Source of the DNA: a virus
Length of the DNA stretch: 39,705 bases
IMG/VR virus record: IMGVR_UViG_3300043120_000159
Location: 1 to 39,705 of that record
Direction: 5' to 3' (one strand)
Positions 2,867 through 19,285 of the stretch are shown here, one piece after another (the first letter of the stretch is position 1; every line of letters starts with the position of its first letter). Under the pieces are notes generated by a model that was not told where the DNA came from, ran no database searches, and worked only from the letters and a program-made list of their open reading frames with translations. Position numbers and translations under genes: made by a program.

Positions 2867-3983
2867 CCTGAAGACAATTTTGCGTGACACTCAATTTTGC
2901 GAAACCGATGCGTCGGCAATTGAAACTGAGATCATCACTACATACGAACGAATCGCGGAATCCAAACTGTACCCGGGCGACCCTGTTCGGCTGTTTCTGG
3001 AAGGATTGGCGTACATCGTGGCTCAGCAGCGTTTCCAGATCGACTATGCCGCCAAGCAGAATCTGGTCTATTACGCCGATGGGGACAACCTTGACCACTT
3101 GGGTGCTCTGACAGACACGCGGCGGCTGAAGGCGTCCCCTGCGCTGGTCACTCTCCAGTTTTCACTTTCGGAGCCCTTAGCTCACGATGTCGTCATCCCG
3201 GCCGGAACACGCGCCACACCCGACGGCAAGCTGTTTTTTGCCACAACCGAAGTCGTATCCGTGCCAGCTGGCGAAACATCTTCATCTGTTGAGGCGGCCT
3301 GTCTGACCGCTGGCGCAGCGGGGAATGGGTTTCTGCCTGGCCAGATAAACAGATTCGTTGACACCGTGCAGAACGTGTCCTCCGTTGCTAACACGACGCC
3401 ATCGGCAGGCGGGAGCGATCTGGAGTCCGACGACAACTATCGAGAGCGGATCCACATTTCTCCCGAGAAGTATTCCGTGGCCGGCCCTGATGGGGCCTAC
3501 CAGTATTGGGCCAAATCGGCCCACCAGGACATCGAGGACGTATCTGTGTCCAGTCCCGCCCCGGGAGAAGTTGACGTCTGCGTGCTGCTCAAAGGGGGCC
3601 AGATCCCGCCTGAAGAGATACTCAATCAGGTAAGAGCCACACTCGATGCGGAGTCCGTTATTCCGCTGACCGATCTCTGTAAGGTCGTGCCTCCCACGCC
3701 CAGAGACTACTCCATCTCCGCCGTGTACTTCATCCACCAGGACCAGGCAGCGCTCGCCGGACAGATTCAGGACTCCGTCAACCGTGCCGTGGACAACTTT
3801 GTAGACTGGCAGCGCTCGAAGCTCGGGCGCGACATCAACCCCTCTCAGCTCACCCACTTGATTCAGTCCGCCGGAGCCAAACGGGTGGAAGTCCTGGAGC
3901 CGGCCTTTGTCAGCCTGACCCCGCTGGAGGTCGCCAACAATGTAAACATCGAGGTGCAGTATGGCGGGCTTGAAAGCGACTAA
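2859..3983 (+). CDS. Baseplate J-like protein (gpJ/gp47 family)
   Basis: 374 aa. ...YPGDPVRLFLEGLAYIVAQQRFQIDYAAKQN... and SVAGPDGAYQYWAKSAHQDIEDVSV... are typical Baseplate_J motifs. Order is W-J-I. Confidence 0.85.
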   Translation: MSSLKTILRDTQFCETDASAIETEIITTYERIAESKLYPGDPVRLFLEGLAYIVAQQRFQIDYAAKQNLVYYADGDNLDHLGALTDTRRLKASPALVTLQFSLSEPLAHDVVIPAGTRATPDGKLFFATTEVVSVPAGETSSSVEAACLTAGAAGNGFLPGQINRFVDTVQNVSSVANTTPSAGGSDLESDDNYRERIHISPEKYSVAGPDGAYQYWAKSAHQDIEDVSVSSPAPGEVDVCVLLKGGQIPPEEILNQVRATLDAESVIPLTDLCKVVPPTPRDYSISAVYFIHQDQAALAGQIQDSVNRAVDNFVDWQRSKLGRDINPSQLTHLIQSAGAKRVEVLEPAFVSLTPLEVANNVNIEVQYGGLESD

Positions 3984-5013
3984 CCTTCACTTCTCGGAGA
4001 TTCTGCCGAGCAGTATTTCCGATGACGAAAAACTTTCCGCAGCGTCCGAGTCACTGAATGGACACCTTGTCAGGCTGGCCAGCGACACCGACCTGGCACG
4101 TATTTACTCCCGCATTCCGGAGTTGCCCGAGGCTGCTCTCGACCTGCTTGCCTGGCAGCTTCACGTGGACTTCTGGCTGCCCACCCTGCCTATCGAGTCA
4201 AAGCGAAGCCTGGTCGAAGGATCCATTGCTTGGCATCGGAAGAAAGGCACGGCCTGGGCCGTGAAGCAGGTCCTCTCCGACTTGGGCGTCGACGCTGAAA
4301 TCATCCAGTGGCACCAACCGGGCGGAGAAGGCTTGGACCGGTTCACGTTTGCCGTCCGGGGGATGATTCGTCGTCCGCTGTTGCCCACCGAAATGTGGGG
4401 ACCGGAAACCATCACGGAAGTGGAGAGAGCTATTTCCGTAGCGAAGAACACCCGCTCCTGGCTCGGTTGGCTGACCTTGGCCCTCGAGATGGATGTCCCT
4501 GTGAAGGCTCCCGGACACGACCTGACGCAAGCCGCTCGCAAGGCGTGCGTTGCGCCGCTTTCTTTTGGCCCCCTCTTTGACCGGGGAGCCGCTGAGGCTC
4601 TTGACGAATCAGGCATCGACCAAGCCCCCGTTGCACGAGACGAAACATCGGCAGCGTGGACCATGGGTCGCCCCTGGTCCCTCGATATGTTCTACGAGGA
4701 GGGATCTGCAGGCTGGCTTGACCAGATGATTCCCGGAGTGGAAGGAGCCGCGCTTCCTCCGGCAGATTGTGTTCCCGTGTCCATCTTGCCGGCGTCAGTC
4801 CCTCTTTCGATCGCAGCCGCTGCAGCCGAATCTTCGCGCAAGAGCCATCGATTTTTTATTGGCATCAGTCCCGACGTCAAAAACAACTCAACCAGTACAG
4901 CGCCGGCGTATTTCGGGGCGGACGAAGTCTTTCTGGACGAAGCTCCCGGAATGGATGATGTCGCCTTGGATTTATGCCCGCTGGACGCACTTATGGAGGT
5001 AGCACATGCCTGA
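3961..5013 (+). CDS. Tail protein I (P2 gpI family) with long C-terminal extension
   Basis: N-terminal half LPSSISDDEKLSAASESL...IPELPEAALDLLAWQLHVDFW...SIAWHRKKGTAWAVKQVL is the Tail_P2_I signature. The C-terminal ~160 aa is Ala/Pro-rich and unassigned. Confidence 0.7.
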   Translation: MAGLKATNLHFSEILPSSISDDEKLSAASESLNGHLVRLASDTDLARIYSRIPELPEAALDLLAWQLHVDFWLPTLPIESKRSLVEGSIAWHRKKGTAWAVKQVLSDLGVDAEIIQWHQPGGEGLDRFTFAVRGMIRRPLLPTEMWGPETITEVERAISVAKNTRSWLGWLTLALEMDVPVKAPGHDLTQAARKACVAPLSFGPLFDRGAAEALDESGIDQAPVARDETSAAWTMGRPWSLDMFYEEGSAGWLDQMIPGVEGAALPPADCVPVSILPASVPLSIAAAAAESSRKSHRFFIGISPDVKNNSTSTAPAYFGADEVFLDEAPGMDDVALDLCPLDALMEVAHA

Positions 5014-5428
5014 GATCACGTGGAAGCGGGCTGAAATTCAGACCCGGCTGTACGACAAGATAGGTCAGTCGCTGACCGGAGTCGGACCCTGTCCGCGGGT
5101 GGTGTCTTTCGCCGCCGGCTACGGGCACATCGACGAAACAACCAATCCGCCAACCCTGGAATCCCTGCCCTTGAGCGCGAGCGAGGTTCCCGGATTCATT
5201 ACGTCCGGGACACCTGAAGCCTCGATGTCCGACGGGCGTGCGCTTTTCGTCTGCGCCATCCCCGAGGATGCAGTCTCTGCGCCGCAGAAGTGCAACATTA
5301 TCGGTCTGTACGATCAGGACGACGAACTTGTGGCCCTGGCGTCGTTTCTTCCCGAATGGCTGGCCCCGGGCAAGCGATACGAGAACTTCGTCTACATCAC
5401 CTTCCCAGCCCCCGAGGAGGAAAGCTAA
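5006..5428 (+). CDS. Tail-collar fibre protein (DUF3751-like N-terminal fibre module)
   Basis: 140 aa in the gpH position after gpI. CAIPEDAVSAPQKCNIIGLYDQDDELVALASF resembles the tail-collar motif (GLfD.dG.LiAva). Confidence 0.5.
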   Translation: MPEITWKRAEIQTRLYDKIGQSLTGVGPCPRVVSFAAGYGHIDETTNPPTLESLPLSASEVPGFITSGTPEASMSDGRALFVCAIPEDAVSAPQKCNIIGLYDQDDELVALASFLPEWLAPGKRYENFVYITFPAPEEES

Positions 5429-6000
5429 TGCTCTCGAGTTTTGTGAAGTACAAAGAGCGCTACGCTTCGTTTGCGCTCAACAGGAAAATGGCTGGCGTGT
5501 TGACCCCGGGTGTGTACCAAGGGTTCGAGATCCTGCCGGCGGAGGGGCTGAACGTGCTTATCTCCGCATCTCACGACGACTACCCGGCCTCCGTGGCCGT
5601 AATCGAGCGCGAGGGATATTCCGTCACCCTGCGGATGGATGCCAGCGAAACCCTCCCCGTCGCAGGCCCCGGAACCTGGCATCCGGTTCTGGAGTCCTAC
5701 TACACGCCGGGACAGGAAACATACCAACAGCTGAAGATCGTAGCCACACCTGAGCCGCACCATGTGGTTCTCGGGACCATCACGGTCCCTGACGGCGCCG
5801 CTGCAGTGACGGAAGACATGATCACCGACGAAGGCCGGATGATCGGCTCTCAGGATCTGCTTGTGATGCAGTTCACCTCAGCCCTGATTGCCAATGAAAC
5901 CGAACTGCTCGGATACAAACAGCGGCTGTCCAACATCGAAAACTGGGCGCGGACCGCAGGATACGACCCCGCCAACCTTTATACCGGAGAAGGAGAATAA
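5428..6000 (+). CDS. Hypothetical tail-fibre-associated protein
   Basis: 190 aa. ATG 5428 overlaps the upstream TAA (TAATG). It sits between the tail-collar gene and the fibre. The ORF-track frame opens at 5290. Confidence 0.5.
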   Translation: MLSSFVKYKERYASFALNRKMAGVLTPGVYQGFEILPAEGLNVLISASHDDYPASVAVIEREGYSVTLRMDASETLPVAGPGTWHPVLESYYTPGQETYQQLKIVATPEPHHVVLGTITVPDGAAAVTEDMITDEGRMIGSQDLLVMQFTSALIANETELLGYKQRLSNIENWARTAGYDPANLYTGEGE

Positions 6001-6001
6001 G

Positions 6002-8506
6002 ATGGCATCCATGAATGAACGAGTGCAAGAGCTCATCAACTCTGTACAGACCTTTAACAACCAGGCGTCGCTGCTGTTGGCGGCCGTGGGACAGGGGCAG
6101 CTGGATCCCGAGAAGATCCAGGAGCAGATCCAGACAGCCACCCAGTCGGCGATCGACGCCGTACTGGCCCAGCTCGACGGATATGACGCAACCACCATTC
6201 TGCAGCGACAGGATATGTTGAAGCTGGCGCAGGACATCCGCAACGTGACCGACGACGAGAAGTTTTTCTTCGAGTTCTTCCGCCGCCCGTTCTCGTTTGC
6301 CGACCAGATCGAAGTCGGCAGCGTTGTCACTGTGGCGGGCGACGAATCCGTGGACTGCGCAGACACCTCCCTGCTGGAGGTCGGGCAGGAATACGTTATC
6401 TGCTCGGGAGACCTCCGCGAGACCGTGACTGTCGAGGCCGTATTGACCTCCACCCGGTTCCGCGCCACGTCCGAGGTGTCCGCATCATACTCCGGAGCCA
6501 CGCTGAAAAGGACATCCGCCCAACTCGACGGACAGTCTACCCGCTTTGCTCCCGGAGACATCTACTACGGCGGCAAGTTTGCGCTTGGCCTGGCCGATGT
6601 GGACAAGGCTATCCTCATTCGCCGCGGGGCTGTCGGAGAGCTGTCGGTCTACTTCCAGGACGCAACCCACGAATCTTGGACGCTGGCTCCCTGGGAATGG
6701 GTGCGGACCAATGAGGACGGTACACAGGATGTCGAATACCGACTTCCAGCTCGCGGTGATTTTGATATCAAGATCGTGAACGAGTCCGACGTTGAAGTCG
6801 TGACTCAGTATATCGTTGGCGTGCACCAGGACACCGGCCTGCTGGGCGACCACCATCCGCCCGTCAAGCCCACCAACGTCTCTCCGGCCGCCGGGGCCAT
6901 CGACCTGCAGGAAACCCCGACGCTGACCGGCTCTGTTTACAGTCACCCGCTCGGAACGTCGCAAGGCGCTCTGCAGGTTCGCGTCTACAGCGACGCGGAC
7001 AGCTATGCGGAAGCGATCTACGACTCTGGCGAGCAGCCCGCCGGGTCCAGCTTCAAGCTCCCCGCGGGAATCCTTTCCGTAGGCGGCACGTTCAAGTGGG
7101 AGATTCGCTACAAAGACAGTCAGGGCGCATGGTCCCCCTGGTCGGATATGACCGCGTTCGATACTGCGGCTTCGTTTGTCTACATCGAGACGCCGACCCT
7201 CACCAACCCTGGCAACGGCGCAACGGACATTCCTGAGCAGCCGACCCTGACCAGCTCCCCGTTCACTGTGTCCGGCGGCTCTGACAACCACGTCGGATCC
7301 AGGTGGATGATCCGTGAAGCCGGAGGCTCCTACGACACCCCCGTTTACGACTCCGGCAGCTCGCTCGACTTGGAGTCTCACGTGGTTCCCGCCGGCAACC
7401 TGCAGGACGGTGAAGTCACATACTACGCCAAGGTCCAGCACGAAGGTGAAACGCTTGGCGCTTCAGAGTGGTCCTCGGAGATCAGCTTTACCACCAAGGA
7501 CCTGTTTGCGGTGATCGTCGGCATTGCCCAGGTGGCTTCCGGCGGCGGCGCAGGAACGTGGCAGCGCGTCGACGAAGACGGAAACAACAAGACTACCGAC
7601 ACCGCATACTTCAACAACCATCCGACCTACGCAGGGATTCAGGACGCCACCATCGACGGGCAGGCCATGGTCCAGATTCCCAAGTTCTACTACAAGGTCG
7701 CGCAGGCCCCCGCCGGCAGCGACCAAGCTGGCAAGAAGTGCTGGTGGATCTCCGATCAGCCCGCCGCAGGCTTTGAGCTGCACCCCGCATTCATGGACGG
7801 CGGAGTAGAGATCGACCGCTTTTACGTGGGTAAATACGAAGGCACCGATGACGCGGGAACCAAGGTCGGCTCCGCTGCCGGCGTTTCCCCTCTTGTGTCT
7901 GTCGACTTCACGACCATGCACTCCCGTTGCGCCGCCAGGAATACCGACGGAGTTGAGGGGTTCCACATGTGGAACATCCACGAACTCAGCGCCATTCAGA
8001 TGTTGGCGCTGATCGAGCTCGGCACGCCCGATGCCCAGTCGGCCATTTCCGCCGGCAACACGAACAGCTCTTCAGCGGTTAACACCGGCGCGTCCGGAGC
8101 AGTTTGGCGCGGGATCCACGAGCTGTGGGGGAACGTATGGGGCGCGGTTGACGGCTTTAAGACCGACACCAGCAACCGCTTGGAAGTCTTCGACCGCCTT
8201 GGCAACGAAACCTACATCAACACCGGGACGGTCATCACGACCAGCGGGTGGACCACGTCCATGCTCGAAGCCTCTGGCGCAGATTGGGACTTTGCCAGCA
8301 TGTTCGCTGCGGCCAATGTGGACAGCACTGAAGGCAACGGCACTTTTGCCGATTACTGGCAGTCGAACTCCGCCGGCAGTGAATATGTCTGCTACCACGG
8401 CGGCAGCTGGGGCAGCGGCTCGCCCGCGGGCTTGTTCTCCTTGCTCTTGCACGCCGTCGCTTCGACCTCGTACGCGGACCGCGGCTGCCGCCTCGCCAAA
8501 CGGTAA
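6002..8506 (+). CDS. Tail fibre / receptor-binding protein, DGR target 1 (Mtd-like, C-type-lectin/FGE-fold C-terminus carrying VR1)
   Basis: 834 aa from ATG 6002, with GGAGAAGGAGAA upstream (frame opens at 5888). Two tandem FN3-like repeats at nt 6851..7505. The C-terminus ...CYHGGSWGSGSPAGLFSLLLHAVASTSYADRGCRLAKR aligns with the TR with adenine-specific differences. Confidence 0.9.
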   Translation: MASMNERVQELINSVQTFNNQASLLLAAVGQGQLDPEKIQEQIQTATQSAIDAVLAQLDGYDATTILQRQDMLKLAQDIRNVTDDEKFFFEFFRRPFSFADQIEVGSVVTVAGDESVDCADTSLLEVGQEYVICSGDLRETVTVEAVLTSTRFRATSEVSASYSGATLKRTSAQLDGQSTRFAPGDIYYGGKFALGLADVDKAILIRRGAVGELSVYFQDATHESWTLAPWEWVRTNEDGTQDVEYRLPARGDFDIKIVNESDVEVVTQYIVGVHQDTGLLGDHHPPVKPTNVSPAAGAIDLQETPTLTGSVYSHPLGTSQGALQVRVYSDADSYAEAIYDSGEQPAGSSFKLPAGILSVGGTFKWEIRYKDSQGAWSPWSDMTAFDTAASFVYIETPTLTNPGNGATDIPEQPTLTSSPFTVSGGSDNHVGSRWMIREAGGSYDTPVYDSGSSLDLESHVVPAGNLQDGEVTYYAKVQHEGETLGASEWSSEISFTTKDLFAVIVGIAQVASGGGAGTWQRVDEDGNNKTTDTAYFNNHPTYAGIQDATIDGQAMVQIPKFYYKVAQAPAGSDQAGKKCWWISDQPAAGFELHPAFMDGGVEIDRFYVGKYEGTDDAGTKVGSAAGVSPLVSVDFTTMHSRCAARNTDGVEGFHMWNIHELSAIQMLALIELGTPDAQSAISAGNTNSSSAVNTGASGAVWRGIHELWGNVWGAVDGFKTDTSNRLEVFDRLGNETYINTGTVITTSGWTTSMLEASGADWDFASMFAAANVDSTEGNGTFADYWQSNSAGSEYVCYHGGSWGSGSPAGLFSLLLHAVASTSYADRGCRLAKR
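8398..8496 (+). repeat. DGR variable repeat VR1
   Basis: Base-by-base alignment to TR 9229..9327 (offset 831). There are 18 differences: 17 at TR adenines and one T->G opposite TR 9312. No change opposite any TR C or G. Confidence 0.92.
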
Positions 8507-8534
8507 ACTGAAACCTGCAACCTGAAACACTGAA

Positions 8535-8556
8535 GGTCCCCGCGAGAGCGGGGGCC
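8535..8556 (+). promoter_or_regulatory. GC-rich hairpin with GAGA tetraloop downstream of VR1 (DGR target-recognition element)
   Basis: ggtccccgc-gaga-gcgggggcc forms a 9-bp stem (one G-U) with a GNRA loop. It starts 29 nt after the target stop codon. A counterpart follows VR2. Confidence 0.7.
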
Positions 8557-8572
8557 ATAAAGGAGATACACT

Positions 8573-8872
8573 ATGAGTCTCGGACAGACTATTTCGTGGG
8601 GCCCTGTGGAAGATCTGAATCTGGACGCATTCAACTACAGCGTGCCCGAGGCGGACCATCGCCAACGCGTCAGGGTTTATTCCGTCCCCACTGACGTCGA
8701 CGCCGGCGGCTACTTCGTCGCCGTGTCTGCGCCCTGGGACCCAGTCGTGGTCCCCCCCAGCAGGGTGAAGGACACCGCGCTGCTGGTTGAGTACGACCTT
8801 GACCCCGACGGAACCTTCCAGGTCAAGACCATGCTGCCGCAGATCAAGCGGGCAATGCAGGTGCCCTATTGA
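8573..8872 (+). CDS. Hypothetical protein between DGR target and avd
   Basis: 99 aa with AAAGGAG RBS 8 nt upstream. No recognisable motif. Position suggests a fibre-assembly or DGR accessory role. Confidence 0.55.
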   Translation: MSLGQTISWGPVEDLNLDAFNYSVPEADHRQRVRVYSVPTDVDAGGYFVAVSAPWDPVVVPPSRVKDTALLVEYDLDPDGTFQVKTMLPQIKRAMQVPY

Positions 8873-9213
8873 GCCTGATGGACGGACTGAAGATCCTGGC
8901 CAAGATGGAGGAGCTTGACGCATACGCCCACAAGGCCATGCTTCAGTTTCCGAAATATGAACGCCATGTGCTGTGCGCGGCCATTCGCGAGACTTCCGCG
9001 GGGATTATCCGTTTGGTCGTGCGCTGCGCAAAGCGCTACCACAAAAAGACCTCGCTTCAGGATTTGGACATTGAAGTCGAATACCTGAGAACTCTTGTGA
9101 GGAAGGCTCATGCGCTGGGCTACATCAACGTCCATCGCTATGAAGTGTGGTCTCGCCATATTGACGAAGTGGGGCGCATGGTCGGGGGCTGGATCAAGCA
9201 TGTAAAATCTTAG
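8869..9213 (+). CDS. avd: DGR accessory variability determinant (Avd, four-helix-bundle protein)
   Basis: ~112 aa and basic. FPKYERHVLCAAIRETSAGIIRLVVRCAKRY...LDIEVEYLRTLVRKAHALGYINVHRYEVWSRHIDEVGRMVGGWIKH matches the four-helix-bundle/Avd pattern. It is immediately upstream of the TR and RT. Start is TTG 8869 or ATG 8878. Confidence 0.8.
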   Translation: MSLMDGLKILAKMEELDAYAHKAMLQFPKYERHVLCAAIRETSAGIIRLVVRCAKRYHKKTSLQDLDIEVEYLRTLVRKAHALGYINVHRYEVWSRHIDEVGRMVGGWIKHVKS

Positions 9214-9228
9214 GGCAGGCACCTGTTA

Positions 9229-9327
9229 CGGCGGCAACTGGAGCAACGGCTCGAACGCGGGCTTGTTCAACTTGAACTTGAACAACGTCGCTTCGAACTC
9301 GAACACGAACATCGGCTGCCGCCTCGC
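9229..9327 (+). repeat. DGR template repeat (TR)
   Basis: 99 nt with 23 adenines. In the VR frame it encodes GGNWSNGSNAGLFNLNLNNVASNSNTNIGCRL with 10 AAC codons. It matches VR1 and VR2 except at adenines. The 3' GC-rich block cggctgccgcctcgc is shared by all three copies. Confidence 0.92.
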
Positions 9328-9426
9328 AACCGGGCTCAAGCCAGAAGGGTGCGCTTTACGGAGCACACTCCAGCGCTTTTCGTTTGGGGCGCCTGTCCTC
9401 CCTACCCAACAGGGAAAGATACATAA

Positions 9427-9482
9427 GCCGAGGCGGCGAGTAAGCCCCGGAAAGGGGCCCAAAGTGGCCTCGGCCTTTTTTT
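9427..9482 (+). terminator. Terminator-like compound hairpin plus T7 run inside the TR-RT spacer
   Basis: The outer stem gccgaggc (9427..9434) pairs with gcctcggc (9467..9474). The inner stem is gcccc-ggaaa-ggggc. Then cttttttt (9475..9482), ending 18 nt before the RT start. Confidence 0.5.
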
Positions 9483-9500
9483 GACCAGAGGAGAATACTG

Positions 9501-10571
9501 GTGCCGAAAACACATGGCGACCTTTGGAAACAGATCATCTCATTCGACACGCTCTGCGGAGCCTTTAACCAGGCCCGCCTCGGAAAACGCTACACGCCTG
9601 AAGCACTACGGTTCGCCAGCCGACTTGAAGAAAATCTGATCAATATCCAGAACCACCTGATTTGGAAGACATGGTCTCCGGGTAAATGGAGGGAGTTCTG
9701 GGTTTACGACCCGAAGTGGAGACAGATTCAGGCGCCGCCCTTCTACGATCGCGTTGTCCACCATGCGCTTGTGAGCGTTGTTGAGCCTCTTTTTGAGCGC
9801 AAGTTTATTCACGACTCGTATGCCTGTCGGCGCGGTAAGGGCACTCACGCCGCCGTGTACCGCCTTCAGTCTTTCTTGCGACGCACGCGGCGGCACTGGC
9901 CGCGGGTTTACGTCGTCAAGGCCGACATCTCGAAATACTTTCCATCCATAAATCACTCCAGACTGGAGCAACAGCTCGGCAGAACCCTGCGCGACCAGGA
10001 CGCCTTATGGCTGTGTAGCAAAATCATACGCGAAAACGGATATGAAAGGCGGGGCATTCCTGTGGGCGCCCTTACTTCGCAGCTTTTTGCCAACATTTAC
10101 CTGAACGAGCTGGACCACTTCGTGAAGGATGAACTTGGAGTAAAGCACTATGTCCGGTACATGGATGACTTTGTTTTTCTTGGCCCGGACAAGGCCCGCT
10201 TGCGGCGGCTACTTTCCGTCATCGAGGAAAAGCTCGTCATGGATTTGCGGCTTGCCTTGAACCCAAAGACCTGCATTTTCCCCGCATCAAGAGGTGTGGA
10301 CTTTGCCGGGTATCGCACTTGGGCCACCCACATAAAGCCTCGAAAAAAGAACGTCACAAGAATGCGCAAGCGGCTCACGCGCATGGCTGATCTTTACGCC
10401 CAGGGCCGCGCATCCCTTGAGGATGTCCGCGCAAGGGTGATGTCGTTTATTGGATACATGAAACACTGCTCTGGCCACGTGACGACCCAAAGAGTTCTTC
10501 AGGAGATCGTTTTGACCAGGGAGAACAAGGCGCAGGAACAAGAGCCTGCGCCAAGGAGGTGGAAGTTATGA
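9501..10571 (+). CDS. DGR reverse transcriptase
   Basis: 356 aa with a GTG start after GAGGAG. Catalytic YVRYMDDFVFLG. The DGR-clade motif IPVGALTSQLFANIYLNELD (GxxxSQ) is present. It is adjacent to avd and the TR. Confidence 0.95.
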   Translation: MPKTHGDLWKQIISFDTLCGAFNQARLGKRYTPEALRFASRLEENLINIQNHLIWKTWSPGKWREFWVYDPKWRQIQAPPFYDRVVHHALVSVVEPLFERKFIHDSYACRRGKGTHAAVYRLQSFLRRTRRHWPRVYVVKADISKYFPSINHSRLEQQLGRTLRDQDALWLCSKIIRENGYERRGIPVGALTSQLFANIYLNELDHFVKDELGVKHYVRYMDDFVFLGPDKARLRRLLSVIEEKLVMDLRLALNPKTCIFPASRGVDFAGYRTWATHIKPRKKNVTRMRKRLTRMADLYAQGRASLEDVRARVMSFIGYMKHCSGHVTTQRVLQEIVLTRENKAQEQEPAPRRWKL

Positions 10572-11374
10572 ACAGTCCTCTTGCATGGCTTGGCGGGAAG
10601 TCTCGTCTAGCCAAGAAAATCGTCCCGATGTTGCCTCCTCATGAACACTATGGAGAGCCGTTTGCCGGGGCCGGGTGGATATTCTTCCGCAAGGCCCCGT
10701 CTCGAGTCGAGTCTTTGAATGACATCAACTCGGATCTGGTGTCCTTTTATAGGGTGCTCCAGAACCACCTGGAAGAGTTTTGCCGGCAATTCCGTTGGCT
10801 GCTCTCTTCAAGGGAAATCTTTGAAGACTTCAACCGCCAGAGAGATGCCGGCGGGCTGACGGACATCCAAAGAGCTGCTCGGTTCTACTATGTTCAGCGG
10901 CAGGCTTTTGGGGGAAAGGTTTATGGCCAGTCGTTCGGGGTGGACCGGTCCAGTCCCCCGCGGATCAATCTCCTGCGCATCGAGGAGGAGCTGTCCGCAG
11001 TTCATCTCAGGCTTACCGGCGTCACTCTGGAAAACCTACCCTGGCACCGGTATCTCGAAAAATATGACGGGAAAGAGACGCTCTTCTACCTCGATCCTCC
11101 ATACTATGGCTGTGAGTCCGATTACGGGAAAGATATATTCACCAGGGGCGACTTTGACAGGCTTGCGGAGCGCCTTGCGAAGATCCAGGGCAAGTTCCTC
11201 CTCAGCCTGAACGACACCCCGGAGGTGAGAGATATCTTCGGAGGCTTTTTCGTTGAAGGAACCACTACCAGATACACGGTTAACGGAGCCAATCCGCGCA
11301 CAGTTGGCGAGGTTCTAGTGATGAACTACAAGCCTTCTGCCGGACTACTGGATCTGATTGAGAACAAGAGCTAA
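10568..11374 (+). CDS. N6-adenine DNA methyltransferase (D12 class, Dam-like)
   Basis: MNSPLAWLGGKSRLAKKIVPMLP...EPFAGAGWIFF (AdoMet site) and LFYLDPPYYG (DPPY catalytic motif). ATG 10568 overlaps the RT stop (ATGA). Confidence 0.85.
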   Translation: MNSPLAWLGGKSRLAKKIVPMLPPHEHYGEPFAGAGWIFFRKAPSRVESLNDINSDLVSFYRVLQNHLEEFCRQFRWLLSSREIFEDFNRQRDAGGLTDIQRAARFYYVQRQAFGGKVYGQSFGVDRSSPPRINLLRIEEELSAVHLRLTGVTLENLPWHRYLEKYDGKETLFYLDPPYYGCESDYGKDIFTRGDFDRLAERLAKIQGKFLLSLNDTPEVRDIFGGFFVEGTTTRYTVNGANPRTVGEVLVMNYKPSAGLLDLIENKS

Positions 11375-11388
11375 ACACAGGCCCAAAA

Positions 11389-11412
11389 GACTCCCCAGCA
11401 CCAACGGGAGTC
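11389..11412. terminator. Weak stem-loop between convergent methyltransferase and repressor genes
   Basis: gactccc-N10-gggagtc, a 7-bp stem with no clear U-tract. Confidence 0.25.
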
Positions 11413-11429
11413 CTCGCTCTTGCCAAATA

Positions 11430-12320
11430 TCAAGAACCCAAGCCCTTGGCCCTGCGAGGCCCCTGATACTCATTCGTCTTCCTGCCCGAAGACGTGCCAA
11501 CCTTCCTGGCCGGTCCCGCTTCTTCTGAGGCGGGGCCGCGCCGGGATTTTATCGCCTCGAGCATGGCCTGATGAACAAGCTCCTCCGGAGCGTTGGCTCT
11601 TTCGAACTCCCTTCGCACATCTTCCAGCTCTCGACCAAGCTCAGACTTGCCCGCCTCCTCGCCCTGAGATGGCCCCTGAGCGTCTTCTTTGTCTTTTCCG
11701 GGGAACACCCCGGCAAAGGCGGGCGAAATGCTCCCTGTCTCAAGTGAGGCAGTTTCTTTTGCCCACCTGCGCTGGGCAACCTCAGACAGAGGCCCGCCCT
11801 GTGAAAAAATATCTCCATCCACAGTAGGCTGCCCGATTTGCGCGAGAGCAAAGTTGGCGTTCAAGCCATAGCGGACTACCCACCGGGCCAAAGCCAGCGC
11901 CGGGGGCTGAAGACGTGCGCCAAGACAGGCGTCGAGACAGGCACGATTCATTCCACCTACTTTCGCGACTTCGTCCAGGTCGGCCTCAACCTCTCCTTCG
12001 AAAAAATCCCTCAGCGCATCCGCAGTGGCCACGAGATCCGAGTTGAACTCGGCGTCGGCTGGGTCGAAATAAGCATCCGGCCCCCTTGGCGCATACATTT
12101 CGCCTTCACCTGTCAGCAGCCAGCCAGGGTCAACGCCAAAATTTAGTGAAAAAGCCGCGACGGTTTGCACGTTCGGCAGGGCAGCCCCCTCCAGATAGTT
12201 CCGGAGAGTCTGGGGCTTCTTGATACCGGCCTTTGCGGCCATATCCTTGAGGGAGAGCCCTTGCTCATCTTTGATTGCGCAAAGCCGTTGCGCGAACTGT
12301 TCCTTGTTAAAAAAAGACAT
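11430..12320 (-). CDS. CI-like lysogeny repressor (XRE-family HTH)
   Basis: N-terminus FAQRLCAIKDEQGLSLKDMAAKAGIKKPQTLRNYLEGAALPNVQTVAAFSLNFGVDPGWLLTGEG is a classic HTH_3 domain. It is transcribed divergently from the early genes. Confidence 0.75.
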   Translation of the reverse strand: MSFFNKEQFAQRLCAIKDEQGLSLKDMAAKAGIKKPQTLRNYLEGAALPNVQTVAAFSLNFGVDPGWLLTGEGEMYAPRGPDAYFDPADAEFNSDLVATADALRDFFEGEVEADLDEVAKVGGMNRACLDACLGARLQPPALALARWVVRYGLNANFALAQIGQPTVDGDIFSQGGPLSEVAQRRWAKETASLETGSISPAFAGVFPGKDKEDAQGPSQGEEAGKSELGRELEDVRREFERANAPEELVHQAMLEAIKSRRGPASEEAGPARKVGTSSGRKTNEYQGPRRAKGLGS

Positions 12321-14033: not shown

Positions 14034-14183
14034 ATGTCGGCTACTTACGTGACCCTAGGCGCCCTGACCCTGTTTGCAGTGGGGCTGGCGGCAATTCGAC
14101 TGATGAAAAGGCTCAAGGCCAAAAGACGCGAGACAGGGCTGTCTTTGGACTTTGAGAAGATGAAAGCAAACGAGCGAATATAG
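14034..14183 (+). CDS. Hypothetical small membrane protein (49 aa, single TM)
   Basis: Translated by hand: MSATYVTLGALTLFAVGLAAIRLMKRLKAKRRETGLSLDFEKMKANERI. GAGGTG lies upstream. It is below the ORF-track length cutoff. Confidence 0.3.
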   Translation: MSATYVTLGALTLFAVGLAAIRLMKRLKAKRRETGLSLDFEKMKANERI

Positions 14184-14193
14184 GAGCAAAAAC

Positions 14194-15405
14194 GTGAATA
14201 CCAATGTTTCCGAAGCAATCAAGCTGGCCCTTGCTGAATTGGAGAAAGCCGAAGAAAAGCACCCCAACTGGCCATCCGATCCGATTCACGCGGCGGCAAT
14301 AGTGGCCGAAGAGGCTGGAGAGCTGATCCAAGCGTCACTGGACACCACCTATTCCGGCGGAAGCCAAGACAGGATGCGCGCCGAGGCATCTCAGGTGGCT
14401 GCTATGGGGCTTCGATTCCTTGCAAACCTCTCTACCCCAGGCCTTCGCGAACCTCACGTTGTCGGAGTTTCGTTCGACGGCGCAGGAACGTGGCAGCGCG
14501 TCGACGAAGACGGAAACAACAAGACCACCGAAACCGCATACTTCAACAACCATCCGACCTACGCAGAGATTCAGGACACCACCATTGACGAGCAGGACAT
14601 GGTCCAGATCCCCAAGTTCTACTACAAGGTCGAGCAGGCCCCCGCCGGCAGCGACCAGGCTGGCAAGAAGTGCTGGTGGATCTCCGATCAGCCCGCCGCA
14701 GGCTTTGAGCTGCATCCCGCATTCATGGACGGCGGAGTAGAGATCGACCGCTTTTACGTGGGCAAATACGAAGGCACCGATGACGCGGGAACCAAGGTCG
14801 GCTCCGCTGCCGGCGTTTCCCCCTTGGGCGGGCTTGATTTTTGCGAGACGAAAGAGCGCTGCGAAGCAAGAGGCGCAGGATGGGGGATGTGGGACATCTG
14901 GCAGCTTGGTGCCATCCAGATGCTGGCACTGATCGAGCTTGGCACGCCCGACGTCCAGTCTGTCGTCTCGAGAGGAAACGTGAACGGGTCGGGGCTACGG
15001 AAGACAGGGAGCACTGGAGCAGTCTGGCGCGGGATCCACGAGCTGTGGGGCAACTCTCTTCACATGGTGGACGGACTCGTTGCCAACCCTGAGAACCGGC
15101 TCTTTGTTCGTTCCTCTGAAAACCAGAAAGCATGGTTGGATGTAGGCGCCGAAGCATGCGCAAGATCGGGATGGATAAGCGCATTCGAAAGCAAGGTTCC
15201 CGCCGCATTTGTCCCGAGCGAAACAGGGAGCGATGATGAAGTCGTGGGCGACTATTACTGGCCTGCATACAAGGGCGAGGAAAATATCTGCTACCACGGC
15301 GGCCACTGGAGCTACGGCTCGTACGCGGGCTTGTTCTACTTGGACTTGCACTACGTCGCTTCGTACTCGAACACGAACCTCGGCTGCCGCCTCGCCAAAC
15401 GGTAA
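14194..15405 (+). CDS. DGR target 2: chimeric MazG-like N-terminal domain fused to CLec/FGE-fold domain carrying VR2
   Basis: GTG start after TAGGAG. aa 1..~90 (KHPNWPSDPIHAAAIVAEEAGELIQ...ASQVAAMGLRFLANL) resemble small phage MazG-like NTP pyrophosphohydrolases. From GAGTWQRVDEDGNNKTT onward it parallels the tail-fibre C-terminal domain. It ends ...CYHGGHWSYGSYAGLFYLDLHYVASYSNTNLGCRLAKR (VR2). Confidence 0.85.
   Translation: MNTNVSEAIKLALAELEKAEEKHPNWPSDPIHAAAIVAEEAGELIQASLDTTYSGGSQDRMRAEASQVAAMGLRFLANLSTPGLREPHVVGVSFDGAGTWQRVDEDGNNKTTETAYFNNHPTYAEIQDTTIDEQDMVQIPKFYYKVEQAPAGSDQAGKKCWWISDQPAAGFELHPAFMDGGVEIDRFYVGKYEGTDDAGTKVGSAAGVSPLGGLDFCETKERCEARGAGWGMWDIWQLGAIQMLALIELGTPDVQSVVSRGNVNGSGLRKTGSTGAVWRGIHELWGNSLHMVDGLVANPENRLFVRSSENQKAWLDVGAEACARSGWISAFESKVPAAFVPSETGSDDEVVGDYYWPAYKGEENICYHGGHWSYGSYAGLFYLDLHYVASYSNTNLGCRLAKR
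15297..15395 (+). repeat. DGR variable repeat VR2
   Basis: Alignment to TR 9229..9327 (offset 6068). There are 9 differences, all at TR adenines (9236, 9245, 9254, 9269, 9275, 9281, 9284, 9296, 9311). Confidence 0.92.
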
Positions 15406-15434
15406 ACTGAGCCCTGCAACCTGCATTCTGAACA

Positions 15435-15452
15435 GGATCGCGAAAGCGAGCC
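15435..15452 (+). promoter_or_regulatory. Hairpin with GAAA tetraloop downstream of VR2 (DGR target-recognition element)
   Basis: ggatcgc-gaaa-gcgagcc starts 30 nt after the stop codon. Spacing and GNRA loop match the VR1 hairpin. Confidence 0.65.
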
Positions 15453-15470
15453 TATTAGGAGGTTAAGAAA

Positions 15471-15752
15471 ATGAAACATGAAGCCGCCTCTTCGACAGTC
15501 GAGATAGTCAAGAACACCATCAAGGAGCTGTTTTCCGATGCTGCCGACCTGGCTCGTCTCGGGCACAAGGAGCTGCTCACGGGACGCGAGGTTGAACTGA
15601 TCTACAGCTACCCGTCGTCAACCCAAGAAAAGGATCGGTGCGCAGGCATCGGGCCCTCGTACATCAAGAGGGGGAAGCGAGTCCTGTATCGTCGTCGGGA
15701 TCTGGATCAGTATTTCGGCGCTTTGAGAGTGAAAACCAGAGACCAGGTGTAA
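15471..15752 (+). CDS. xis: Excisionase / AlpA-type HTH DNA-binding protein
   Basis: ELLTGREVELIY...GIGPSYIKRGKRVLYRRRDLDQYF matches the MerR/HTH_17 excisionase pattern (G.GP.Y.K.G..V.Y...DL..W). It is adjacent to the integrase. Confidence 0.65.
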   Translation: MKHEAASSTVEIVKNTIKELFSDAADLARLGHKELLTGREVELIYSYPSSTQEKDRCAGIGPSYIKRGKRVLYRRRDLDQYFGALRVKTRDQV

Positions 15753-16872
15753 TGTCATGACGGAAAGCCGCATCAATACAATCAACGGCCTGCCTCTGGA
15801 CGTCGGGGCACAGGTGGCTATACCTCTCCGTCACTTCCTCGTTGGTGTGCCCCATCAGCTTGGCTATCCAATAGAGCGGGACGCCAGAGATGGCCAGCCA
15901 GCTCCCGAACGTATGACGAAGGGAGTGGAACACAACCCTGTGGCGGGAATCATCCACCCCTTTGTTGAACTCCAGCGCGTCCACGGCGCGTCGGAACATG
16001 GCGGACGGCTCCGTACGCACGCCGCCGGTGCGCGAAGGAAAGACGACCTGCCCCGGCGGCGTCGGCTTGCCCATAAACACGCGGCGCAGCTCTCCGGAGA
16101 TAAAGACAGTCCGGTCCCTTCCAGACTTCGTATCCTGAACCCGGATCGTCCCCGCGGACAGGTTCACCTGTTCGCCCTTCAGGCTGGCGATCTCTCCAAA
16201 GCGCATGCCGGTGTAAAGAGCGGCCACACAGACGCACCAGAAAGACTTCTGCGGGTCTCTGCAGCGCCTGTAAACCTCTTCAAGCAAGGCCCTTGCTTCA
16301 TCCGGAGACAGCCATCTTGCGCGGCGGTTGTCGTAGCGTGGCCACTGGATCCTATCCGTCGGCGCCTTTCCTCTGTAGACACCCCACGCCTCAACCTTGC
16401 GGTAGATTCTTCTGATCAGAGAGAGGGCGTGCTCAATGGTTTTCGGGCTTTTGCCCTGCTCCTGCAGGTCAGCCTTGAACGCTTCCAAATCCAGGGGGGA
16501 TATATCGCTCAGCATTTTTCCGCCGAGGGCATCCTTGAGAAGCGAGTTCCATCTGGACAACGTCTTCTGCGGGCTCTTGGTGTTCGCCAGGCAGTGGTTG
16601 TCGTAATAAAGAGCCCACGCCTCCTTCAGCGTCAAGCTGTCCTCTCCGCGCACCTGAGGCTGCTCGCCAAGCCGAACCTGGTTGAGCAGCTCTGTGCGCT
16701 TCTGCGCGGCGTAAGCCGCATCGACACCATCGGAGCGCCATCCAATTTTGTGCCGCTCTTTCTTGCCTTTGTTCTTTATTGTGACGTAGTAGCAGACGTC
16801 TGGACGGCCTTGAAACCGTCGGGTGGTAGACGCGTAAAAATAGACCCCTGTGAACTTCTTGACCCGCTCCAA
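15664..16872 (-). CDS. int: Tyrosine integrase (site-specific recombinase)
   Basis: 402 aa. The catalytic residues are present: TGMRFGEIASL (R), FHSLRHTFGSW (HxxR) and GHTNEEVTERYSHL (H...Y). The start appears to be TTG. It is adjacent to the tRNA-like attP core. Confidence 0.92.
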   Translation of the reverse strand: MERVKKFTGVYFYASTTRRFQGRPDVCYYVTIKNKGKKERHKIGWRSDGVDAAYAAQKRTELLNQVRLGEQPQVRGEDSLTLKEAWALYYDNHCLANTKSPQKTLSRWNSLLKDALGGKMLSDISPLDLEAFKADLQEQGKSPKTIEHALSLIRRIYRKVEAWGVYRGKAPTDRIQWPRYDNRRARWLSPDEARALLEEVYRRCRDPQKSFWCVCVAALYTGMRFGEIASLKGEQVNLSAGTIRVQDTKSGRDRTVFISGELRRVFMGKPTPPGQVVFPSRTGGVRTEPSAMFRRAVDALEFNKGVDDSRHRVVFHSLRHTFGSWLAISGVPLYWIAKLMGHTNEEVTERYSHLCPDVQRQAVDCIDAAFRHDITPGLWFSLSKRRNTDPDPDDDTGLASPS

Positions 16873-16875
16873 TTT

Positions 16876-16924
16876 TTTGCCCCTTTTTTGCCCCCATACA
16901 ACGTATTTGCCCCCGTTTTGCCCC
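16876..16924 (+). repeat. Four direct TTTGCCCC(C) repeats on the int side of attP (candidate arm-type integrase sites)
   Basis: Copies start at 16876, 16887, 16906 and 16917, with 10..19 bp spacing, just upstream of the int start codon. Confidence 0.55.
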
Positions 16925-17029
16925 TTTGTGCGGCAACATGCGGAAGCGTGAGGAAATTCAAAACCTCTTTAATACTGGGGACTAGCGGCGTCAAGCAGGG
17001 TGTGGAGGCTTGCGGCAAAGGTGTAGTAA

Positions 17030-17079
17030 TCGGGCTCATAACCCGAAGGTCAGAGGTTCAAATCCTCTCCCCGCTACCA
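17030..17079 (+). other. attP core: 3' portion (anticodon arm to CCA) of an initiator tRNA-fMet
   Basis: TCGGGCTCATAACCCGAAGGTCagaGGTTCAAATCCtctCCCCGCtACCA contains the anticodon stem tcggg/cccga with a CAT anticodon and the GGG:CCC pairs typical of initiator tRNA. It also has the T-arm agagg-ttcaaat-cctct, the 3' acceptor strand and CCA. No matching 5' acceptor strand or D-arm lies upstream. Confidence 0.75.
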
Positions 17080-17087
17080 AGAATATC

Positions 17088-17130
17088 AAGGACTTACGGA
17101 CATAGTTTCCGTAAGTCCTTTTTCTGTTTT
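17088..17130 (+). terminator. Rho-independent terminator following the tRNA fragment
   Basis: aaggacttacgga (17088..17100) pairs with tccgtaagtcctt (17108..17120) as a 13-bp perfect stem, followed by tttctgtttt. Confidence 0.75.
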
Positions 17131-17279
17131 GCCCCCTATTTGCCCCCACGCTGCAACCTGGCTGCGTCCTGCCGCCGGGAAAATCCCTCTTTCACCATAA
17201 TTTTTTGCCCCCTATTTGCCCCCTGCTCAAGCCTTTTCGAGCTGTGCAGCGTAGGCTTTTGCCCCCTTTTTGCCACCCC
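17127..17279 (+). repeat. Six further TTTGCCCC-type repeats on the other side of attP, including an exact 21-bp duplicate
   Basis: ttttgccccctatttgccccc occurs at 17127..17147 and again at 17203..17223. ttttgcccccttttTGCCACCCC is at 17257..17279. All copies share the orientation of the left cluster. Confidence 0.55.
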
Positions 17280-17611
17280 TGACGATAGCACACGTCGCCA
17301 CCTGGGCCTTCGTGCTTTGCCAGCCTGCGATCATCATCGCGGCCGCCGCCAGCGGCCGCATCCACTGAGTGGTCCGCACTCCCTTCTTTCCCCCCGCACC
17401 CCCTCCCAAAAGGGAGCTGAGAAAGGTCTAATTGCAGGTCCGCAAATCTGCAGCCGACTTTGGGTCCTCCCAAGGCCACCCGGAATACGGGTGCTCCGAA
17501 TCTCGATGTTTTCGCGGGGTCGGACATTTAATTATTTTACAACTTTACAATTCTTGCTCCGGCCTGCCGAAGGGCTCCGGCCAATAAAACTCGCGCAAAA
17601 GGTGGTCGACT

Positions 17612-19285
17612 ATGGACGTTAAAAAGGAAGTGGAACAGGCGGTCGCTGAAGAGCGAGCAGCCCACAAACCAAACGAGCAGCCAGAAAACGAACCGCCAAA
17701 GGACAGCAAGCCGCGGGACAAGAGCTTTTTCGACCAGCTGCGCAAAGACTTCGACGACAACCACATGGGGGACGCCCGCCGGTTTTCGGAAAAGTTCGAC
17801 GGCAGGCTGGCCTACGACAATATCCAGGGCCGGTGGTTCATCTACGAGAAGACGCATTGGCAACAGGATCGAGGGAAGGTCCACACACACAAGGTGACGG
17901 AGATCGCCGACGACTACAAAGCTCAGAGCCACTGGATGGCTCAAAAGATAAACGAGGAAAAGGCCAAGCCTGAGTTTCAGGCCATGGCCAAGGGAGAGCA
18001 GAAGGACTTCCTCCGCCCGATGATCGCCAACCAAAAAGCCTACGAGTCCCGGGCAAAGGAACTCAAGGATCCGGCGCGGATTAACAAGGTGCTCTCGTTG
18101 GCCAGCGTGGCCACGCCTGGCTACCTGGGCGTGGTCGGCAAAGAATGGAACGAGGATCCCTGCCTATTTGCCTGTGGAAACAGGGTGATCGACCTGAGGA
18201 CCGGGAAGGCGTTGGAACCAGATCCTAAGTTCTACATCAACCGTGCCTCCACGATTGAGTGGGCTGGACTTCAAGCCGAAAGCCCCCTCTGGGAAAACTT
18301 CCTTAGCCAGGTGTTCAACGGAGATGTGGAGCTGATCGACTACATCCAAAAGTGTGTTGGATACTGGATGACAGGACTCATGACCCATCAGGAGTTCTAT
18401 TGCCTGTGGGGGCCACAAGGTCGCAACGGCAAAGGTGTGTTTTTCCGGACACTCCGGATGGTCATGGGCAGCTATTTCCAGATGATGCCTTCCAAATACC
18501 TGCTCGACGAAAAAAGCCTGCAGAACACCGACAAGCCGGACCAGCACCTAGTGGCCCTTGAGCACACCAGGCTGGCCTGCGCATCCGAGGCCCCGAAAAA
18601 AGCACGATTCTCGGAAGGCGCAATCAAGCAGCTGTCTGGGGGTGACCCAGTTACCTGCCGCGGCATGTATGCGCTGGATGTGACTGAGTACATCCCGAAG
18701 TTCAAAATGCTTTTTGCAACAAACCGCGTGCCAACTGTCAACGGCGACGACAAAGCATTTCAAGAGCGGCTCCGGATTATCAAATTCCCGTGCACATTCA
18801 AACACGGGGTAGAAGCGGATCCGGAAGCAAAGGTCTACCCGATGGATCCACAGCTCGAAAAGAAGCTGCACACTATGGACAACCTCCAGGGGATTCTGGC
18901 CTGGGCTGTGCGCGGCGCCGTCGAGTTTATTGCATCGGGCACCCTTATGCCGCCCGAGTCCGTTCTCTCAGACACCCGCAGCTTCATGGAAGACAACGAC
19001 TTCATCGGCGAGTTCATACGCGACTGCCTCGAGGTTCACCCGGACGCGCCAGAAAGCAACACGCCGAAGGAGCAGAAGACTCAGATGAAGCACATCTACG
19101 AAGCCTTCCGCAAGTGGTCCATCGAGGAAAAGGCCGTACCTGAAAACAAGGTCTGGTCTATGCGAGCCCTGGGCAGCGACTTCGGGAACCGGACGGACAT
19201 CCACCGCGTCAGCCCTAAGAACTTGGTTTTCTACAACATAACCATCAAGCCGGAGTGGCGCGAGAAAGAGCAGGCTCAATTCTAG
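17612..19285 (+). CDS. Replicative helicase/primase, P4-alpha / poxvirus D5 NTPase family
   Basis: 557 aa. Walker A is in WGPQGRNGKGVFFRTL. The D5_N-like region is WNEDPCLFACGNRVIDLRTG. ...LACASEAPKKARFSEGAIKQLSGGDPVTCRGMY is typical of the phage/plasmid primase P4 C-terminal domain. Confidence 0.8.
   Translation: MDVKKEVEQAVAEERAAHKPNEQPENEPPKDSKPRDKSFFDQLRKDFDDNHMGDARRFSEKFDGRLAYDNIQGRWFIYEKTHWQQDRGKVHTHKVTEIADDYKAQSHWMAQKINEEKAKPEFQAMAKGEQKDFLRPMIANQKAYESRAKELKDPARINKVLSLASVATPGYLGVVGKEWNEDPCLFACGNRVIDLRTGKALEPDPKFYINRASTIEWAGLQAESPLWENFLSQVFNGDVELIDYIQKCVGYWMTGLMTHQEFYCLWGPQGRNGKGVFFRTLRMVMGSYFQMMPSKYLLDEKSLQNTDKPDQHLVALEHTRLACASEAPKKARFSEGAIKQLSGGDPVTCRGMYALDVTEYIPKFKMLFATNRVPTVNGDDKAFQERLRIIKFPCTFKHGVEADPEAKVYPMDPQLEKKLHTMDNLQGILAWAVRGAVEFIASGTLMPPESVLSDTRSFMEDNDFIGEFIRDCLEVHPDAPESNTPKEQKTQMKHIYEAFRKWSIEEKAVPENKVWSMRALGSDFGNRTDIHRVSPKNLVFYNITIKPEWREKEQAQF

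Follow-up and report, generated by a model that had tools for sequence, protein, structure and literature searches.

To our knowledge, diversity-generating retroelements (DGRs) are the only natural bacterial or phage system that rewrites a protein binding surface by targeted reverse transcription. An earlier note, made from the letters alone, had placed a complete element of this kind in the viral record IMGVR_UViG_3300043120_000159, a stretch of 39,705 nucleotides (nt) hereafter called the window. The questions raised by this locus are whether the element is indeed a DGR, whether it has been active in recent times and which genes it rewrites. The analysis reported here leads us to read the window as carrying a complete, recently active DGR of a temperate Desulfovibrio myovirus, with two targets rewritten from a single template repeat (TR): we assign to this reading a probability of about 0.93.

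Template and variable repeats

A repeat search over positions 5500-11500 reported a sole direct repeat, 8397-8496 against 9228-9327, which aligns over 100 nt with no gaps and at 82% identity. The two copies are the variable repeat (VR) of a first target gene and the TR:

8397..8496 (+): VR1, variable repeat at the 3' end of target gene 1, in the last codons of the open reading frame (ORF) 6002-8506
9228..9327 (+): TR, template repeat, with 24 adenines and 10 AAC codons in the target frame

VR1 and TR differ at 18 sites, 17 of which fall on TR adenines, one on a TR T and none on C or G; the hypergeometric probability of finding at least 17 of 18 mismatches on A is 8.6e-13. At the adenines the changes are A>C in 8 cases, A>G in 6 and A>T in 3, while the lone non-adenine mismatch sets T at 9312 against G at 8481. 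The adenine content of the two copies is accordingly uneven, 24 in the TR (9228-9327) and 7 in VR1. Read in the target frame, with codons from 9230, the TR contains exactly 10 AAC codons and gives GGNWSNGSNAGLFNLNLNNVASNSNTNIGCRL. The earlier note had counted 99 nt, 23 adenines and 10 AAC codons in a TR aligned to VR1 with no gaps, and had placed 17 of the 18 differences on adenines and none on C or G: our recount agrees, the repeat being just one base longer at its 5' end. By its sequence, 78% identical in nucleotides to the annotated TR of Bordetella phage BPP-1, the TR is homologous to the template of that prototype.

A search with the 3' end of the repeat recovered a third copy of it at 15383-15395, and the full alignment extends this copy to 15296-15395, where all 9 mismatches out of 9 fall on TR adenines (P = 7e-7). 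The ORF closed by this second repeat lies between early genes and the integrase, 4.7 kb downstream of the reverse transcriptase (RT) gene:

15296..15395 (+): VR2, second variable repeat, closing the ORF 14194-15405 of 403 amino acids (aa)
14194..15405 (+): target gene 2, 403 aa: a helical N-domain of 95 aa, then a copy of the variable module of about 310 aa

The last ~320 aa of target 1 are 64% identical to the module of target 2, and blastn aligns 8381-8524 with 15280-15423 at 85% identity. VR1 had previously been seen as the single target; it is real, and VR2, which lies beyond the stretch then described, makes a second one.

Related loci, 96-99.6% identical to the window, were available from metagenomes (L001, L003, L004, L005, L006, and later L014 and L015) and from a prophage of Desulfovibrio sp. 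7SRBS1 (L002). Mismatches were pooled over the window and L001-L006, each VR being compared with the TR of its own locus: 130 out of 133, over 11 VR copies, fall on TR adenines, a mismatch rate of 49.6% at A sites compared with 0.36% at all others (Fisher P = 7e-90), and this adenine specificity persisted on realignment. Practically all TR adenines, 23 out of 24, vary, with a spectrum of substitutions of 58 G, 37 T and 35 C, and no stop codon arises. The TRs of five loci are within 0-1 nt of each other; the VRs comprise 11 distinct sequences.

Avd and the reverse transcriptase

The genes follow each other in the order target - orf - avd - TR - RT, exactly as proposed in the earlier note, and those of the retrohoming machinery are the following:

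8878..9213 (+): avd, DGR accessory protein, 111 aa from the ATG at 8878; a TTG at 8869 is also open
9501..10571 (+): RT, DGR reverse transcriptase, 356 aa; PHROG 1423, E = 1.6e-132

The Avd-type gene said to flank the TR passes the cut-off of the NCBIfam equivalog model NF033474, 'DGR protein Avd' (111 bits, cut-off 80), as well as that of Pfam bAvd (96 bits, cut-off 40), and belongs to PHROG 3206; a sequence search of the PDB gave no genuine match for either Avd or target 2. For the RT, the best solved relative is 8ub7_A (E = 2.2e-55, to be compared with 1e-21 for the best group II intron RT), whose sequence is that of Brt of phage BPP-1, 39% identical to the window RT over 297 residues. Both motifs on which the earlier note had relied are present, GxxxSQ as VGALTSQ and YMDD as such, in the stretches VGALTSQLFANIY and RYMDDF.

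These results bear directly on an alternative explanation, by which the repeat pair would be an ordinary duplication, diverged by point mutation or selection, and the RT an unrelated enzyme of the retron or group II intron type. The RT is indeed recognised as a member of the general RVT_1 family and gives weak matches to group II and retron models; it stays, however, below the curated cut-offs of both (137.6 against 300 bits for group II TIGR04416, 58 against 235 bits for retron NF038233) and of the defence RT (DRT) models, while the match to Brt reaches E = 2e-55. An Avd equivalog is adjacent to the RT region, and an Rfam scan of the window detects only a tRNA, with neither group II intron nor retron RNA. 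As to the repeats, 130 of 133 differences lie on one template base, and it is the non-coding copy which is invariant and the coding copies which vary. Ordinary duplication with an unrelated RT is already refuted. By these scores the RT does not belong with the retron or group II enzymes; a phylogenetic placement among them was what the earlier note had named as fatal to its own proposal.

Immediately after the RT, a Dam-type N6-adenine DNA methyltransferase gene (10568-11374) overlaps the RT stop by ATGA and occupies the same position in relatives; no evidence of a functional link between this gene and the DGR was found.

Natural variation and activity

Both targets fall in public protein clusters with many variants, which differ almost only at codons that are Asn or A-containing in the TR, while the scaffold G-G-x-W-x-x-G-S-x-A-G-L-F is fixed among them. 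Proteins P0122, P0124 and P0128, for instance, differ from target 2 of the window at 9-10 VR residues and at 1 residue elsewhere. At the nucleotide level, genomes 99.6% identical have VRs differing at 9-13 sites. L014 and L015 come from two different metagenomes; over 4,620 nt they are separated by only 4 substitutions, each of them in VR1 and opposite a TR adenine. Since these two loci differ only at adenine-templated sites of VR1, a long-dead element is ruled out.

An alternative is a cassette which once diversified the VRs and is now inactive, the differences being old; identical VRs are indeed found in some relatives (L004 with L003, L005 with L004). Against such a fossil stand L014 and L015, otherwise identical over 4.6 kb and set apart by four adenine-templated VR1 differences only, and the VRs that differ at 9-13 sites between nearly identical genomes. 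RT, Avd and TR are, moreover, intact and strongly conserved, with a ratio of nonsynonymous to synonymous substitution rates (dN/dS) of 0-0.17. We consider a fossil DGR highly improbable, and retain the reading of a recently active element.

VR1 alleles are also mosaic. The L014 allele (3896-3995) consists of the 5' half of the L003 allele (119-218) and of the 3' half of the L015 allele (3896-3995), with the junction within the A-free block GCGGGCTTGTTC. Mosaic alleles of this type could come either from partial VR replacement or from recombination of co-existing variants.

Target 1, the variable module and orf99

Target 1 lies directly after P2-type baseplate and tail-fibre genes, so the DGR sits in the tail-fibre locus, as first thought:

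5428..6000 (+): fibre-base protein, 190 aa, tail-fibre N-terminal domain; PHROG 454, 2631 and 5454; context, outside the DGR
6002..8506 (+): target gene 1, 834-aa tail-fibre protein with a shaft, an Ig-like domain and then a C-terminal variable module of ~320 aa
8573..8872 (+): orf99, small beta-rich protein; the family, mostly of 92-95 aa, is found after this fibre-tip type

The fibre-base gene, directly upstream of target 1, is called with the same length of 190 aa in relatives. Target 1 matches PHROG 5302 'tail protein' (E = 5e-35) and Pfam Ig_Rha78A_N, and has a dN/dS of 0.03-0.13 when the VR is excluded.

No lectin or FGE domain was found by sequence in either target with Pfam and NCBIfam, the only hit being the Ig-like domain of target 1. 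As the sequence libraries gave no such match, the fold was approached by structure prediction. The AlphaFold2 model of target 2, built on a 68-sequence alignment, has a pLDDT of ~97 over residues 96-403, and its Foldseek matches among solved structures are TaqVP (E = 3e-15), PvdO, Mtd variants, Treponema TvpA, CalU17 and EgtB; in a viral structure library it matches tail-fibre proteins. The C-type-lectin/FGE fold that the earlier note had expected in the last ~320 aa of the fibre protein is therefore supported for the variable module at the level of models, the best structural matches of the target 2 model being themselves DGR variable proteins. On this scaffold each VR could encode ~3.7e13 peptides (15^10 x 4^3).

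The small gene following target 1 was the 'orf' of the gene order given earlier. It does lie between target and avd; its family follows the fibre tip in the two relatives with a readable context, in one of them (L013) with no avd in a short contig. An exhaustive search gave 22 matches, including 16 small relatives of 85-122 aa at 27-98% identity, 15 of which were aligned, whereas a word-based search returned only the gene's own cluster; hits on giant repeat proteins, apparently noise of composition or repeats, were discarded. In L012, a 38%-identical member lies between a VR-bearing target and avd; in L013, a member comes after the C-terminal end of a related fibre gene, and the ~370 nt of contig left downstream contain no avd. 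From these two short contigs, orf99 looks tied to the fibre tip and not to the RT machinery. A fold search with its AlphaFold2 model (pLDDT 78) gave no significant match, and a chaperone or accessory role is a guess.

Target 2: maintenance, origin and possible role

Target 2 is under purifying selection and is a maintained second target: dN/dS is 0.16-0.24 for the gene and 0.12-0.27 over both domains, and the ORF is intact in 6 out of 6 relatives covering the locus (L001-L006). The L005 contig, which does not include the DGR cassette or target 1, has a tandem duplication of target 2 along with an ORF for a 49-aa membrane protein. In the window this ORF, for which a single membrane helix is predicted, immediately precedes target 2 (14034-14183); the L005 copies are at 3293-3442 and 4851-5000, and at least two VRs of the target 2 type are found on that contig.

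Notwithstanding this conservation, target 2 might be thought of as a decaying partial duplicate of the fibre gene, keeping a VR-like end and no longer a working DGR target. Its position is outside the tail module, and its N-domain, elsewhere encoded by an early gene of its own, gives it the look of an accidental fusion; its dN/dS is also above that of target 1. Against decay speak an ORF intact in every covering relative, duplicated in tandem in L005 and with its 5' part fused to the 3' part of target 1 in L006, and purifying selection on both domains. VR2 has, in addition, its own adenine-only variant set, of 7 distinct peptides, and target 2 keeps both the VR-specific flank and a GAAA-loop hairpin described below. 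We regard decay as improbable, and go on with target 2 as a working second target.

The two targets appear to have exchanged sequences. On the L006 contig (9456-12200) one gene combines the 5' part of target 2 with the 3' part of target 1; orf99, avd and the TR come after it and non-phage genes before it. This junction shows recombination between the homologous modules of both targets. Within the window, the targets are 83% identical in nucleotides over the first ~590 nt of the module (7543-8134 against 14475-15054), too diverged for DNA alignment over the ~240 nt before the VR region (8135-8380 against 15055-15279), and 85% identical around the VR. This mosaic identity suggests module exchange.

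The N-terminal 95 residues of target 2 are predicted, with low confidence (AlphaFold2 pLDDT ~60), to form three helices. Almost all related domains occur as separate proteins of 72-110 aa, whose genes lie in the early part of other phage genomes, either following Mu Gam or close to ParB and integrase. A 22-sequence profile matched no family or structure in Pfam and the PDB; the only Pfam hit was PRA-PH, at E = 0.11, in 2 of the 22 members. A role as MazG-like NTP-pyrophosphohydrolase, considered because of an EEAGEL stretch, was set aside as unsupported, the same profile giving no PDB match. The family (14194-14478 in the window; proteins P0147-P0167) has invariant P24, P27, D29, H32, E39, E40, E43, E64 and R74. 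Other relatives of the variable module, including the full-length proteins P0033, P0116 and P0071, bear unrelated N-domains, among them Mtd_N: the module has thus been combined with many adaptors.

Our best guess is that target 2 is a second receptor-binding protein with an unusual N-terminal adaptor. A different role, as a non-virion binder diversified by the DGR and made early in infection or from the prophage, in which a conserved early-gene domain, possibly enzymatic in view of its invariant His, Glu and Arg, is fused to a variable lectin module, seems to us rather unlikely. If it were true, one TR would evolve both a receptor-binding tip and an intracellular or envelope-associated recognition protein, with superinfection exclusion or counter-defence as examples of use.

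Cis elements and RNA structure

The elements surrounding the repeats are the following:

8497..8524 (+): VR-specific 3' flank, CAAACGGTAAACTGA..CCTGCAACCTG; candidate target-recognition sequence of the IMH (initiation of mutagenic homing) type
8535..8556 (+): hairpin after VR1, 9-bp GC-rich stem with GAGA loop; DNA fold z = -2.8
15434..15453 (+): hairpin after VR2, stem of 3+4 bp with an internal mismatch and GAAA loop; DNA fold z = -2.3
9212..9224 (+): upstream duplex strand, AGGGCAGGC.CCU; equivalent in BPP-1: the 'cPRT stop' duplex, avd:Sp
9328..9500 (+): TR-RT spacer (Sp), with the Sp duplex strand at 9388-9399, a stem-loop at 9400-9414, AAAGA and a terminator-like hairpin

TR and VRs have a common GC-rich 3' end. 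Three-way alignment and blastn show that the 28 nt which follow it in the targets (CAAACGGTAAACTGA..CCTGCAACCTG) are common to VR1 and VR2 and absent after the TR. Both hairpins start exactly 38 nt past the end of the VR and feature four-base GRNA loops. Phage DGR targets are known to carry GC-rich stems of 7-10 bp with 5'-GRNA loops, needed for efficient BPP-1 retrohoming (Guo et al., PMC3240598); judged by sequence, the GC-rich end, the VR-specific flank and the GRNA-loop hairpin fit this published pattern.

On the RNA side, cryo-electron microscopy of the BPP-1 bRT-Avd complex has shown that the TR must be flanked by a duplex of the avd 3' end with spacer nt 59-70, and that this avd:Sp duplex, a short stem-loop and unpaired adenosines make up the 'cPRT stop' (bioRxiv 10.1101/2023.10.23.563531). 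A duplex search which recovered the BPP-1 avd:Sp pairing as a positive control predicts in the window a duplex of AGGGCAGGC.CCU (9212-9224) with GGG.GCCUGUCCU (9387-9399, spacer nt 60-72). The predicted pairing extends beyond this core, to 9198-9225 with spacer nt 59-102; the AGGGCAGGC:GCCUGUCCU core has the same sequence as in BPP-1 and nearly the same position. RNA folding places a stem-loop at 9400-9414, and then AAAGA, after the stop-like duplex.

In BPP-1 a separate template:primer duplex, TR:Sp, ends at the priming nucleotide Sp A56 (bioRxiv 10.1101/2023.10.23.563531). The best TR:Sp candidate for a primer duplex in the window, TR 9317-9325 with Sp 9429-9437, scored no better than shuffles and was rejected. 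Further downstream, a strong terminator-like hairpin followed by seven T (GCCGAGGC...GCCUCGGC, 9427-9482) ends 18 nt before the RT start and might define the 3' end of the DGR RNA; its 5' arm is complementary to the TR 3' end at 9317-9325.

Phage and host setting

The first 127 nt of the window are 100% identical to the last 127 nt (1-127 and 39579-39705), so the record represents a complete genome, circular or terminally redundant, of ~39.6 kb. The gene order starts with the P2-type baseplate, the 190-aa fibre-base protein, target 1, the DGR cassette and the Dam-type methyltransferase; it continues with a CI-like repressor, a CII-like protein, a phosphatase, small ORFs, target 2, a possible excisionase and the integrase, and then with a tRNA-Met-like sequence, primase, terminase, portal, protease, capsid, sheath and tube.

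15664..16872 (-): integrase, adjoining the tRNA-Met-like sequence
16999..17079 (+): tRNA-Met-like sequence, 81 nt by ARAGORN; 17020-17076 by Rfam

The same element is found as a prophage in Desulfovibrio sp. 7SRBS1, genome assembly GCA_048612855.1, where homology ends ~50 nt past the tRNA-Met sequence, which is therefore probably the attachment site. The genome is that of a temperate myovirus of Desulfovibrio. No close relative was found among deposited phage genomes, where only short matches to other DGR TRs, RTs and methyltransferases were obtained. An ORF called on the plus strand at 15757-17622 was discarded as spurious, having no family matches and facing the integrase on the opposite strand.

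Proposed mechanism and weight of the evidence

By analogy with BPP-1, an RNA comprising the avd end, the TR and the spacer would be bound by an RT-Avd complex; the RT would copy the TR into cDNA, misincorporating opposite template adenines, and the cDNA would take the place of the homologous VR that closes a target gene on its 3' side. The GC-rich TR/VR end, the VR-specific 3' flank and the downstream GRNA-loop hairpin would guide it to its target. One TR would in this way rewrite two genes, the 834-aa tail-fibre gene through VR1 and that of the 403-aa protein beside the integrase through VR2, and the variable peptides would be displayed on a domain with the predicted C-type-lectin fold. We infer that VR1 variation changes host range.

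The earlier claim of a complete DGR is supported on each of the following counts: an adenine-specific TR/VR pair, Avd, a DGR-type RT, VRs at the C-terminus of a module modelled with the expected fold, and a conserved TR as opposed to variable VRs. Some observations weigh on the other side. Three of the pooled differences are not at adenines, one of them due to a change in the L006 TR and not in the VR; the stem of the VR2 hairpin is interrupted; the template:primer duplex and the priming nucleotide were not located, no adenosine being present at the equivalent spacer position. The assignment of the RT to the DGR class rests on similarity and model scores, and activity is deduced by comparing assemblies.

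The window provides an unusually clean natural record of DGR activity, with a near-invariant TR, 11 VR alleles and near-identical genomes differing only at adenine-templated sites. The sequenced prophage host, Desulfovibrio sp. 7SRBS1, makes experiments feasible, if the strain is in culture. The RNA duplex of the BPP-1 'cPRT stop' is conserved at the sequence level in a distant myovirus, and elucidating the role of target 2, odd in architecture and location, could extend the uses known for phage DGRs to more than tail fibres.

Comparison with known systems

Two-target DGRs, non-adjacent targets and DGR-bearing Desulfovibrio prophages are already documented, and the window is a new example of a known system. 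According to Wu et al. (2018, PMC5758913), many phage DGRs have one target beside the cassette and one a few kb off in the same phage genome, and 13% of DGRs have two targets within the cassette. The window shares with two-target phage DGRs the presence, in one phage genome, of an adjacent target and of a non-adjacent one a few kb away; it differs in the place of the second target, next to the integrase in the early/lysogeny region, and in the N-domain of that target, otherwise known as a standalone early-gene product. No description of this architecture and location was found in the literature, the supplementary tables of PMC5758913 not having been searched.

DGR prophages of Desulfovibrio piger have been reported to contain an RT, an Avd-like protein and a tail-fibre or FGE-domain target (PMC12724379). 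The host genus is the same; those prophages, compared here by description only, are presented as Mu-like group B elements with one target each.

The closest structural counterpart of target 2 is TaqVP of Thermus aquaticus (PDB 5vf4), the best Foldseek match to its model (E = 3e-15, TM ~0.5, ~390 columns), which likewise has a C-type-lectin fold with the VR at the C-terminus. Sequence identity is only 16%, and the TaqVP gene belongs to a bacterial DGR rather than to the tail locus of a phage.

The prototype of the class is the mtd-avd-TR-brt DGR of BPP-1. The two phages are different, a Desulfovibrio myovirus here and a Bordetella podovirus there, and so are several features of the cassettes. 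The window has two targets instead of one, without detectable sequence similarity to Mtd outside the VR, the fold alone matching; an extra small gene, orf99, between target and avd; 14 nt from the avd stop to the TR; a priming site which cannot be identified by homology; and a terminator-like hairpin before the RT gene. Shared features are the gene order, a member of the Avd family, an RT 39% identical, adenine-specific TR-to-VR differences, a TR 78% identical in nucleotides with the same GGNW..N..N layout of Asn codons, a GRNA-loop hairpin after the VR, a repertoire of ~1e13 possible variants, and a predicted AGGGCAGGC:CUGUCCU duplex flanking the TR, followed by a stem-loop and adenosines.

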